A DNA stretch of 58,758 nucleotides, filler included, from Sphacelaria rigidula (lineage: Eukaryota), in assembly GCA_964200075.2 (NCBI GenBank). It is 8 parts of 8 records of this genome, joined end to end, with 100 filler letters (N's around TTAATTAATTAA, not from the genome) between each part and the next. Parts side by side here need not be neighbours in the genome. Positions count along the whole stretch, not along the records: positions 7,360 to 14,617 come from CAXNAA020015736.1; 7 more parts are not named here. The stretch is one strand, 5' to 3'. The notes beneath the pieces are model-generated. The model was not told where the DNA came from and made no database searches. It saw only the letters and a program-made list of their open reading frames with translations. The position numbers were made by a program, and so were the translations under genes. Numbering within the stretch: the stretch's first letter is position 1; each line of letters begins with the position of its first letter. Shown here in pieces: positions 7,360-14,617 of the stretch.

Positions 7360-10300
7360 ACTCGACCGATGACGACTCGTTTACTGACGACTCGATCGCC
7401 GACGACCCGACCACTGACGGTTCGTTGACAACCAGTTCAACCCCTGACGGCTCGTTGACCGACAACTCCACCACTGAGAACTCGTTTAATGACAACTGAT
7501 TCACCGCCGACTGGACCACTGACGATGCCACCACTGTTGATTCGCTCGCTGGCGAATCCACGATGGACGACCCACTCGCCGTGACTCGACCACTGTGGAC
7601 TCGACCGCAGACGACTCCACGACCAACGACTCGATCACTGACGATTCCACCACTGACGACTCCATCACTGACGACTCCACCACTGACGACTCCACCACTG
7701 ACGACTTCACGACAGGTGAGTTGGTGACAGACGACCTCACCATAGATGCCTTCGTCATGGACCATCCAACAACTCATGACTCAACCAGACATGACCTTCC
7801 GCTACGACTCAAGGGCAGACGGTCTGACTCATCGCGAGTGACTCGACTACCGGACGCTCGTTCACCGACGCATCGACCCCGTTAGACACATCCACTGACT
7901 AGGGCACCACCAAGTTGACAACCAGAATCTCCACCATATACTACTTCATCACACACGGCGGTACTACAAGCGACCTGATCACTTGCTCACAGCACTCTTG
8001 ATCACGGACGAGACAGCCGTGAAGGCGGCGACCAAAGACAGTTCGAACAGATACGGGTCGACAACCGTCGACTCGACCGATGACGACTCGTTTACAGACG
8101 ACTCGATCGCCGACGACTCGACCACTGACGGCTCGTCGACTGACAACTGCACCGTTGACAACTCGTTCAATGACAACTGATTCGCCGACGACTGGACCAC
8201 TGACGATACCACCACTGTTGATTCGTTCGCTGGCGTCTCGACGATGGACGGTCCACTCACCGTGACTCGACCACTGCGAACTCGACCGCAGACGACTCCA
8301 CGACCGATGACTCGATCACTGACGACTCCACCACTGACGACTCGATCACTGACGACTCCACCACTGACGACTCCACCACCGACGACTCTACCACTGACGA
8401 CTCTTCGACGGGTAAGTTGGTGACAGACGACCTTACCATAGATGTCTTCGTCATGGACCATCCAACAACTCACGACTCGACCAGGCATGACATTCTGCTC
8501 AGACTCAAGGGCTAACGGTCTGACTATCCGCGAGCGACTCGACTACCTGACGCTCGTTCACTGACGCATCGACCCCGTCAGACACCTCCACTGACCAGGC
8601 TACCGCCAAGTTCACAACCAGAATCTCCACCATATACTACTTCATCACACACGACGGTACTACAAACGACCTGATCACTTGCTCACAGCACTCTTGATCA
8701 CGGACGAGACAGCCGTGAGGGCGGCGATCAAAGACAGTTTGGACAGAAACGGGTCGACCACCGACGACTCGACCGATGACGACTCGTTTACTGACGACTC
8801 GATCGCCGACGACCCGACCACTGACGGTTCGTTGACAACCAGTTCAACCCCTGACGGCTCGTTGACCGACAACTCCACCACTGAGAACTCGTTTAATGAC
8901 AACTGATTCACCGCCGACTGGACCACTGACGATGCCACCACTGTTGATTCGCTCGCTGGCGACTCGACGATGGACGACCTACTCGCCGTGACTCGACCAC
9001 TGTGGACTCGACCGCAGACGACTCCACGACCAACGACTCGATCACTGACGACTCCACCACTGACGACTCCATCACTGACGACTCCACCACTGACGACTCC
9101 ACCACCGACGACGCCACGACAGGTGAGTTGGTGACAGTCGACCTCACCATAGATGTCTTCGTCATGGACCATCCAACAATCCACGACTCAACCAGACATG
9201 ACGTTCCGCTACGACTCGAGGGCAGACGGTCTGACTCATCGCGAGTGACTCGACTACCGGACGCTCGTTCACCGAGACATCGACCCCGTTAGACACATCC
9301 ACTGACTAGGCCACCACAAAGGTGACAACCAGAGACTCCACCATATACTACTTCATCACACACGACGGTACAACAAGCGACCTGATCACTTGCTCACAGC
9401 ACTCTTGATCACGGACGAGACAGCCGTGAGGGCGGCGACCATAGACAATTTGAACAGAAACAGGTCGACAACCGACGACTCGACCGATGACGACTCGTTT
9501 ACTGACGGCTTGATCGCCGACGACTCGACCACTGACGGCTCGTTGACTAACAGATCGACCTCTGACGGCTCGTTGACTGACAACTGCACGACTGACGACG
9601 TGTTCAATGATGACTCATTTACCGCCGACTGGAGCACTGACGATGCCACCACTGTTGATTCGTTTGCTGACGATTCGACGATGGACGACCCACTCACCGT
9701 GACTCGACCGCTGTGGACTCGATCGCAGACGACCCCACGACCGACGACTTGATCACTGACGACTCCACCACTGACGACTCGATCTCTGACGACTCCACCA
9801 CTGACGACTCCACCACCGATGACACCACCACTGTCGACTCCACGACAGGTGAGTTGGTGACAGACGACCTCACCATAGATGCCTTTGTCATGGACCATCC
9901 AACAACTCACGACTCAAGACTCGACCAAGTATCATTCCGCTACGACTCGAGGGCAGACGGTCTGACTAATCGCGAGAGACTCGACTACCGGACGCTCGTT
10001 CACCGACGCATCGACCCCGTTAGACACCTCTACTGACGAGGCCACCACGAAGTTGACCACCAGAATCTCCACCATATACTACTTCATCACACACGACGGC
10101 ACTATAAGCGACGTGATCACTTGCTCACAGCACTCTTGATCACGGGCGAAACAGCCGTGGAGGCGGCGACCAAAGACAGTTTGTACAATAAACGGATCGA
10201 CCACGGTCGACTCGACCGATGACGACTCGACCACTGACGACTCGATCGCCGACGACTCGACCACTGTCGGCTCGTTGGCAACCAGTTCAACCCCTGACGG

Positions 10301-13300: not shown

Positions 13301-14617
13301 ACGACTCCACTACTGTCGACTCGATCACTGACGACTCGACCACCGATGACTCCACCACTGACGACTTCACCACAGGTAAGTTGGTGACAGACGAACTTAC
13401 CATAGATGCCTTTGTCATGGACCATCCAACAACTCACGACTTAACCACGCATGACCTTCCGCTACGACTCATGGTCAGACGGTCTGACTAACCGCGAAAA
13501 ACTCGTCTACCGGAAGCTCCTGTACTGGCGCATCGACCCCGTTACACACCTCCACTGACTAGGCTACCGCCGAGTTGACAACCAGAATCTCCACCATATA
13601 CTACTTCATCACACACGACGGTACTACAAGCCACCTGATCACTTGCTCACAGCACTCTTGATCACCGGCGAGTCAGCCGTAAAGGCGACGACCAGAGACA
13701 GTTTGAACCGATACGGGTCGACCACCGACGACTCGACCGATGACGACTCGTTTACAGACGACTCGATCGCCGACGACTCGACCACTGACGGTTCGTCTAC
13801 TGACAGTTCAACATCTGACGGCTCGTTGACTGACAACTGCACCACTGACGACTTGTTCAATGACAACTGATTCGCCGACGACTGGACCACTGACGATGCC
13901 ACCACTGTTGATTCGTTCGCTGGCGTCTCGACGATGGACGACCCACTTAACGTAACTCGACCACTGCGGACTCGACAGCAGACGACTCCACGACCGACGA
14001 CTCGATCACTGACGACTCGATCACTGACGACTCCACCACCGACGACTCCACCACTGACGATTCCACGACAGGTGAGTTGGTGACAGACGACCTCACCATA
14101 AATGCTTTCGTCATGGATCAACCAAAAACTCACGACTCAACCAGACATGACGTCCCGCTACGATTCAAGCGCAGACGGTCTGACTAATCGCGAGAGACTC
14201 GACTACCGGGCGCTCCTTCACCGACCCATCGACCCCGTAAGACTCCTTCACTGACGAGGCCACCACAACGTTGACAACCAGAATCTCCACCATATACTAC
14301 TTCATCACACACGGCGGTACTACAAGCGACCTGATCACTTGCTCACAGCACTCTTGATCACGGACGAGACAGCCGTGAAGGCGACGACCAGAGACTGTTT
14401 GAACAGATACGGGTCGACAACCGTCGACTCGACCGATGACGACAAGCTTACAGACGACTCGGTCGCCGACGACTCGACCACTGACGGTTCGTCGACTAAC
14501 AGTTCAACATCTGACGGCTCGTCGACTGACAACTGCACCATTGACAACTCGTTCAATGACAACTGATTCGCCGACGACTGGACCACTGACGATACCACCA
14601 CTGTTGATTCGTTTGCT
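7360..14617. repeat. Tandem array of ~700-bp units (9 complete + 2 partial) with a 15-bp sub-repeat GACGACTCCACCACT
   Basis: Marker tcacttgctcacagcactcttgat at 7979, 8675, 9386, 10117, 10829, 11539, 12234, 12928, 13639 and 14335 (periods 696, 711, 731, 712, 710, 695, 694, 711, 696). The array fills the whole contig. Confidence 0.97.

Follow-up and report, generated by a model that had tools for sequence, protein, structure and literature searches.

A tandem array of ~711-bp units with a 15-base rhythm in the alga Sphacelaria rigidula is probably a non-coding satellite

The window analysed here, 58,758 bases of the draft assembly GCA_964200075.2 of the alga Sphacelaria rigidula, is made up of eight separate contigs (7259, 7258, 7258, 7257, 7257, 7257, 7256 and 7256 bp), sorted by length and joined by spacers of the form N44-TTAATTAATTAA-N44 at positions 7260-7359, 14618-14717, 21976-22075, 29333-29432, 36690-36789, 44047-44146 and 51403-51502. 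The contigs are separate places of one assembly, and neighbours in the window give no context for one another. Contig 2 (CAXNAA020015736.1; 7,258 bp) coincides exactly with positions 7360-14617 and is filled by a tandem array (7360..14617, + strand) of nine full and two cut copies of a 694-726-bp unit. Both of its ends lie inside units, and the coordinates of the N-runs confirm that the array runs off the contig at 7360 and at 14617, as a preliminary description of this DNA had stated. That description had left two interpretations side by side, viz., a series of exon-plus-intron modules encoding an acidic (DDSTT)n protein, and a non-coding higher-order satellite grown from a 15-mer. The latter fits all the tests reported below, whereas the former is not supported by them. 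We consider it very likely, judging from the sequence, that contig 2 is a piece of a non-coding tandem satellite of algal nuclear DNA, grown from a motif of 15 bases.

The hexamer GT[AG]AGT (hereafter GTRAGT) occurs ten times on the + strand of the array, at 7716, 8412, 9123, 9849, 10566, 11277, 11971, 12667, 13376 and 14072, with spacings of 696, 711, 726, 717, 711, 694, 696, 709 and 696. These landmarks, 694-726 nt apart, and the alignment of the units reveal the head-to-tail arrangement at near-constant length by which satellites are recognised. The nine full and two partial units were aligned to obtain a 711-nt majority consensus, with which the unit at 8412..9122 (+ strand, 711 nt) is colinear; it serves as the reference unit, consensus position p being window position 8411+p. 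Identity between units is 85.7-93.6%, with the single exception of one pair, 7360-7715 and 8767-9122, which lie two units apart and are 98.0% identical. This pair points to a block of two units that was duplicated locally not long ago, and not to a higher-order period that recurs regularly, and a clean multi-unit higher-order repeat was rejected, the 98% pair being the only one of high identity. C and A are the commoner bases of the + strand (C 0.339, G 0.215, A 0.263, T 0.183), and the basic motif of the array is the 15-mer GACGACTCCACCACT. Within the window this 15-mer array is limited to contig 2, where a 23-nt double 15-mer, allowing up to three mismatches, gives 71 matches between 7461 and 14490, none of them on the - strand; shuffles predict 0. 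The observed/expected ratio of CpG is 1.36 in the array and 0.94-1.03 in all seven other contigs, and the genome, as sampled in the window, is not depleted of CpG. Decay of CpG as a sign of methylated heterochromatin was rejected, the substitution rate per site being 0.428 at CpG and 0.403 elsewhere, with no excess.

The unit opens at the donor-like GTRAGT with a well-conserved block (8412..8474, consensus 1-63, + strand), a run of decayed 15-mers with a mean pairwise divergence of 0.069 and 46 invariant columns out of 63, which reads ELVTD DLTID AFVMD HPTTH in the DDSTT frame. The most variable part of the unit follows (8475..8621, consensus 64-210, + strand; divergence 0.134), with stops in every frame and frameshifting indels, and then a second well-conserved block (8622..8711, consensus 211-300, + strand; divergence 0.065, 68 of 90 columns invariant), which contains the ctgatcacttgctcacag motif with its two TGATCA sites. 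The recurrence of this second acceptor-like motif, pointed out earlier, is borne out by nine exact copies of the 18-mer. Older, partly decayed sub-repeats of 15/30 nt occupy 8757..9017 (consensus 346-606, + strand) and include an in-frame TGA at 8904-8906 and a shared frame break at ~8985-8992. Of the 11 units or part-units, 8 have the TGA (AACTGATTC), while the break, a shift of 1 nt at about consensus position 577 between two DDSTT-like tracts, is common to all units. The unit closes with the youngest and most uniform 15-mer tract (9018..9122, + strand; seven copies, divergence 0.116, lag-15 match 0.83-0.95), which is one of the ten candidate exons. The two conserved blocks may owe their state to recent homogenisation or to a bound factor, and on examination they gave no coding, fold or palindrome signal. 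RNA folding of both strands of 8605-8715 and 8412-8480 gave no signal (z-scores -0.89 to 0.15; -0.89 and 0.15 for the second block, which likewise has no coding signal), and no inverted repeats were found within a unit.

The candidate exons proposed in the preliminary description are the + strand segments 7611-7715, 8292-8411, 9018-9122, 9729-9848, 10461-10565, 11172-11276, 11881-11970, 12577-12666, 13271-13375 and 13982-14071, and what was seen in them holds in every particular. All ten begin after gcag/ and end before /GTRAGT (the slash marks the border), the donor-like hexamer being GTGAGT in eight and GTAAGT in two (8412 and 13376). Their sizes are 105, 120, 105, 120, 105, 105, 90, 90, 105 and 90 nt, and the gaps that separate them measure 576-612 nt. 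They are stop-free and in phase 1-1 in 10 of 10 cases, with AC at the start, G at the end and pentapeptides of the D[DN]S[TI]T type in between (DSTT(D/N)DSITDDSTT...), such that a codon G/AC would be rebuilt across a junction. As the alignment confirms, the segments contain neither the frame break nor the TGA, and none of the non-triplet indels (one of 7 nt at ~9911-9917, others of 2 nt in two units, and single-base ones in three places including ~11800) falls in them; the 15-nt period and its frame do continue through the donor (ELVTD DLTID AFVMD). Canonical-looking splice sites, symmetric phase and an open frame are thus present in all ten units that show the segment, but they carry little weight, because they follow from the register of the 15-mer and from its codon make-up.

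The self-match of the whole consensus at a lag of 15 is 0.541, compared with 0.16-0.35 at lags other than multiples of 15, and over consensus 1-300, within the supposed intron, it is 0.418 against a shuffle mean of 0.263 (z 6.1) and a maximum of 0.326 at other lags. The lag-15 match rises along the unit from 0.28-0.35 at consensus 61-120, climbing steadily to 0.95 at 631-690, and the uniform tract holds 6, 7 or 8 15-mers per unit. The proposed ~600-nt intron is a decayed form of the same 15-mer material. AG dinucleotides occur in consensus 450-711 only at 605 and 710, exactly 7x15 apart, and the 'acceptor' gcaG/AC and the 'donor' acaG/GT are variants of one position of the 15-mer, ACTG/AC. Since acceptor and donor stand in the same register, any segment enclosed by them is a multiple of 15 and phase-symmetric. 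That the segments are stop-free says little as well, because the 15-mer reads without a stop in the DDSTT frame and a single mutation hardly ever creates one: among 306 single-base changes to the 34 codons of this frame, one leads to a stop. A second + frame is likewise stop-free in nine of the ten segments. The 15-mer repeat does not respect the proposed exon borders, with the DDSTT frame and register already in place ~30 nt before the acceptor (DSTTVDSTA) and kept for 60 nt or more past the donor (through ELVTD DLTID AFVMD HPTTH). The donor-like hexamer is no rarity either, GTRAGT being expected by composition 0.14 times per unit on the + strand and 0.54 times on the - strand and being seen once per strand in the consensus; it recurs in all ten units because these are copies of one another, and its 60-nt surroundings are no less conserved. 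Most simply, the exon-like look of the segments is no more than chance, a by-product of the 15-base rhythm.

The comparison of conservation between the segments and their surroundings went against an exonic nature. Pairs of units diverge on average by 0.116 over the columns of the candidate exons and by 0.112 over the remaining columns, and the segments show no extra conservation; 410 of 711 circular windows of equal size are more conserved than the candidate-exon window, and the two best-conserved blocks, consensus 1-63 and 211-300, both lie inside the supposed intron. Exons better conserved between units than introns, as expected of a coding array, are not what the units display. Constraint was also assessed by the ratio of non-synonymous (N) to synonymous (S) changes relative to expectation, for each consensus region and frame. 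In all six frames the ratio is 0.96-1.2 at consensus 64-170 and ~1 at 64-263, and it is 0.7-1.8 at 264-600. The + DDSTT-like frame of consensus 346-606 shows no synonymous excess (S=22, N=49, ratio 0.78, p 0.20), and the DDSTT frame of the first conserved block gives S=7, N=10 and a ratio of 0.48 (p 0.11). By these ratios, near 1 in most regions and frames, by the shared frame break and the stop of most units and by the lack of relatives, the array shows no protein-coding constraint, apart from a wobble bias in the youngest 15-mers.

This bias belongs to a set of observations that speak against a non-coding satellite. Over the 69 15-mers of the ten segments, mean entropy is 0.81 at the five third positions of the DDSTT frame and 0.32 at the other ten positions, a bias toward wobble positions with a Mann-Whitney p of 0.016, uncorrected for three possible phases. 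The distinct changes from the consensus within the segments amount to S=20 and N=19 where 10.6 synonymous changes are expected (p 0.0012). A perfect CAG/GTRAGT stands exactly at the end of the uniform tract in every one of the ten units, the segments vary in length only by multiples of 15, and six non-triplet indel events (7 nt, 2 nt and four of 1 nt) all lie outside them. The summed contig depths in the sequencing runs described below (54.6-2669 in run X1, 1.57-285.6 in run X5) come with no single-copy baseline and are not convertible to copy number. As regards the synonymous excess, the events largely re-use three pre-existing types of 15-mer (...TCCACCACT, ...TCGATCACT and ...TCCACCACC) and are for this reason not independent, and the minus-strand VVESS frame has the same wobble columns (19 versus 20, p 0.008). 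Length changes in multiples of 15 are the ordinary outcome of slippage in a 15-mer tract, and the count of non-triplet indels inside the segments, 0 versus ~1 expected, is not significant. The wobble bias is perhaps a hint that the primordial 15-mer was once a codon repeat; it is no evidence that the present array is translated.

Searches for relatives gave no matches on the + strand. Pfam had none for four open reading frames (ORFs) of the array, and a word-index protein search, run with a + ORF of 179 amino acids (aa) against proteins of near lengths and with a 114-aa + ORF against longer proteins, found nothing at E<=0.001. The Pfam search of array ORFs and the word-index searches of + ORFs provided neither protein relatives nor a known domain for the encoded repeat. 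Rfam detected no family, and no rRNA, in contig 2 or in the window, a tRNA search returned nothing, and exact-pattern scans of metagenome and viral contigs gave no match to the array; literature containing 'DDSTT' anywhere in its text was unrelated among the matches listed. A small or structured RNA gene in the conserved blocks was rejected on the empty Rfam and tRNA searches, the flat fold z-scores and the lack of inverted repeats. The array would be a known kind of thing, satellite DNA, whose sequence family has no match in the collections searched.

The array is also found in independent sequencing runs. Five runs of two studies contain the stretch, sharing 0.20-0.37 of the sampled words; four of these bear one organism label and the fifth is labelled 'algae metagenome'. 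Contigs of runs X1 (n=308) and X5 (n=324), from two independent studies, cover 30 of 30 bins colinearly, the 'intron' parts included. Since contigs of two studies carry the array, the repeat is real and not an artefact of assembly. The longest listed contig pieces on the array measure 115-299 nt, and 174 contigs of X1 and 177 of X5 fit two places on it. The five joints listed link different units, with skips of 1864, 3533 and 4223 and returns of 2153 and 1509, and the joint 10681>8529 is present in both studies. Such mosaic unit junctions are the expected pattern of an array that has many near-identical copies and recombines. Among the loose ends, the five listed measure 8-197 nt; none leads out of the repeat, and the two longest show similar 15-mer sequence. 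Intron-sized GT..AG joints are absent from the X1 and X5 contigs, but the runs are probably of DNA and hence uninformative on splicing. None of the runs listed as containing the stretch is recorded as RNA. Runs X8 and X9, guessed to be of RNA and each with ~83 million letters of contigs, had no contig that fitted the array, a result that is uninformative on expression.

From the observed anatomy and periodicity, and from the absence of extra conservation and of relatives, we infer the non-coding nature of the array, the order of events in its making and the mechanism of its growth. We hypothesize that a 15-bp minisatellite expanded and that the ~711-bp monomer is an old array of ~47 copies of this motif, most of which would have decayed before the unit was amplified. 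The frame break, and probably the TGA too, likely preceded the amplification of the ~711-bp block: because the break is found in all units and the TGA in 8 of 11, the block was presumably not one reading frame when it was amplified. It would then have multiplied head to tail through unequal exchange. In the uniform 15-mers at the 3' end, slippage or unequal exchange likely goes on adding or removing 15 or 30 nt, with units of 694-726 bp as the outcome, and unequal exchange between units would have produced the mosaic joints. In the older tract, the alignment shows one deletion of 30 nt.

A coding array would differ from such a satellite in that every unit contributes one + exon of 90-120 nt in phase 1-1, with introns of ~576-612 nt, all spliced into an acidic (DDS[TI]T)n protein whose size would vary with the number of units and of 15-mers. 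The gcag/ and /GTRAGT borders of stop-free, phase-symmetric segments in ten of ten units agree with this, as do the bias of DDSTT-frame variation to wobble positions and the placing of the frame break, the TGA and all non-triplet indels outside the segments. However, the segments diverge no less than the 'intron' (0.116 versus 0.112) and the best-conserved blocks are intronic, the stop-free state and symmetry of the segments follow from the 15-mer register, the frame and register overrun the acceptor by ~30 nt and the donor by at least 60 nt, and the 'intron' is itself decayed 15-mer. Moreover, the sequence has no polypyrimidine tract ahead of the AG, no protein with this repeat was found in the word-index searches of the two + ORFs, and contig 2 has neither a first nor a last exon. 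A spliced protein of this kind is therefore given little credence here. We are equally doubtful that the array codes for protein, or did so until recently, with a 15-mer that evolved as an Asp-Asp-Ser-Thr/Ile-Thr codon repeat, at which the wobble-biased variation hints, and with units that act as exon-plus-intron modules spliced ...ACAG/ACGAC...; in a weaker form of this idea, the satellite would have been born from such an exon and its intron. Somewhat less improbable, though still unlikely, is that the array is a non-coding block of sub-repeats internal to a larger multi-copy element, e.g. the intergenic spacer of ribosomal DNA (rDNA) or a large transposon. The spacers of rDNA typically contain sub-repeats a few hundred bp long that have short periods inside them, and depth in the runs varies from contig to contig and is often high. 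An extract of PMC6302065 provides a moss example of spacer sub-repeats. On the other side, neither contig 2 nor the window has an rRNA or other Rfam family, the loose ends listed never leave the repeat, and nothing ties the array to any element, although contig 2, having no flanks, would not show a linkage to rRNA genes either way.

The minus strand offers yet another possibility, since ORFs of 165-192 aa lie at nine of the ten unit junctions (for example 8675..9187, - strand), eight of them in a shared frame and the ninth frame-shifted at its C-terminus, and they exceed every + ORF except one in size. Read as genes, they would provide one such ORF per unit (...SGGVVSGGVV...ESSVVESSAIESSVNESS...AVSK and a stop), as a tandem family of small genes or as large exons of a Ser/Val/Glu-rich repeat protein. 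Their regular placing and their rank among the longest ORFs of the array are in keeping with this, and linkers of the (ESSVx)n or (EPSVN)n type do occur in natural proteins (P0006, P0007). Yet long minus ORFs arise for free, because GACGACTCCACCACT in reverse complement lacks stops in each of the three frames, and ORFs of 90-190 aa are found in all three minus frames. The ratio in the frame of the ORF itself is 1.34 at consensus 1-63 and 1.65 at 601-711, which indicates no constraint, and owing to the shared 1-nt shift, the repeat appears as SGGVV in the first part of the ORF and as ESSVV after it. No Pfam family was found. HMMER, run with the 192-aa minus ORF against 1.84 billion representatives, gave nine weak matches with E-values of 5.5e-7 to 8.9e-4 and none below 1e-10; the five that were fetched are unrelated proteins, alike in low-complexity repeats only, viz., (ESSVx)n, (EPSVN)n or similar pentapeptide runs. 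Low-complexity matches at E-values of 1e-4 to 1e-7 are not homology. On the ratios, the stop-free reverse complement and the purely low-complexity matches of the five fetched proteins, the minus ORFs were rejected as genes, the example above being judged an artefact of composition, and minus-strand coding strikes us as the least credible of the alternatives, with next to no chance of being right. P0006 and P0007 have linkers made of long (EPSVN)n or (ESSV[TMVQ])n runs, similar to what the 15-mer reads in the minus frame.

Some satellites with higher-order structure in animals and plants have monomers built of decayed short sub-repeats. The array is like them in its head-to-tail units of constant size that are 86-94% alike, in its alternating conserved and variable blocks with internal short-period sub-repeats, in its mosaic unit junctions in independent samples and in its lack of a coding signal, but it is unlike them in that its monomer is long (~711 bp) and strongly strand-asymmetric and in that the variation of its motif has a codon-like bias. 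The human LPA kringle IV-2 copy-number repeat is a tandem exon-plus-intron coding array in which the number of units sets the length of the protein, and in LPA-type genes conservation is concentrated in the exons, whose product is a folded domain that has relatives. The ten segments of the array share with it phase 1-1, canonical-looking sites and units of several hundred bp. In contrast, they are no better conserved than the rest, they encode a pentapeptide repeat only, without relatives, and their 'intron' is a decayed repeat. Coding minisatellites rich in Ser, Thr and Asp, of the mucin-like or linker kind (including those of the bacterial P0006 and P0007), resemble the array in its 15-nt period, stop-free frame and third-position variation; they form one continuous exon with ordinary flanking domains, whereas the frame of the array is broken in every unit and repeat is all that it contains. 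With respect to centromeres, a bioRxiv preprint (10.64898/2025.12.07.692804) describes satellite DNA as conspicuously absent from most of those of the brown-algal species studied, with specific retrotransposons as their marks. Both these centromeres and the array are nuclear repeats of algae, but the centromeres studied are mostly satellite-free, and for this reason a centromeric role of the array should not be assumed.

As satellite DNA, the array would be a species- or lineage-specific repeat of little importance beyond its own genome, although it breaks the assembly and might serve as a cytogenetic or population marker. It also carries a caution, as a short stop-free motif in register can mimic phase-symmetric 'exons' with consensus splice sites in every unit. 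Were it coding after all, it would be a rare non-animal case of protein length set by a tandem exon-intron array, and the alga would have a candidate for a giant acidic, possibly cation-binding, protein of the cell surface or matrix with tunable length.

In the seven other contigs, no Pfam family was found among 150 ORFs of at least 90 aa, plus five long ones. A 456-aa ORF elsewhere in the window gave, for a part only, unnamed or LRR-like leads at 0.81-0.91 in an Atlas look-up. Long homopolymers are present at 1185-1262 (C78, adjoining N10 at 1263-1272), 7200-7253 (C54, at the end of contig 1), 31507-31551 (G45, after N10 at 31476-31485), 36841-36873 (G33, near the start of contig 6) and 56675-56748 (A74, after N10 at 56661-56670); they are next to 10-N gaps within contigs or close to the ends of contigs, and perhaps arose in sequencing or scaffolding instead of belonging to the genome. 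A second short-repeat array, at 36377-36689, has periods of 15, 9 and 6 nt (CGACGACAACAACAA / ACAACA) and runs into the end of contig 5; it also contains GACGAC, also breaks the assembly, and is overlapped by a 289-aa minus ORF (35868-36737). Other repeats in the window are a 55-bp tandem repeat of 3.8 copies at 33708-33918 and an (AAT)38 microsatellite at 30531-30647.

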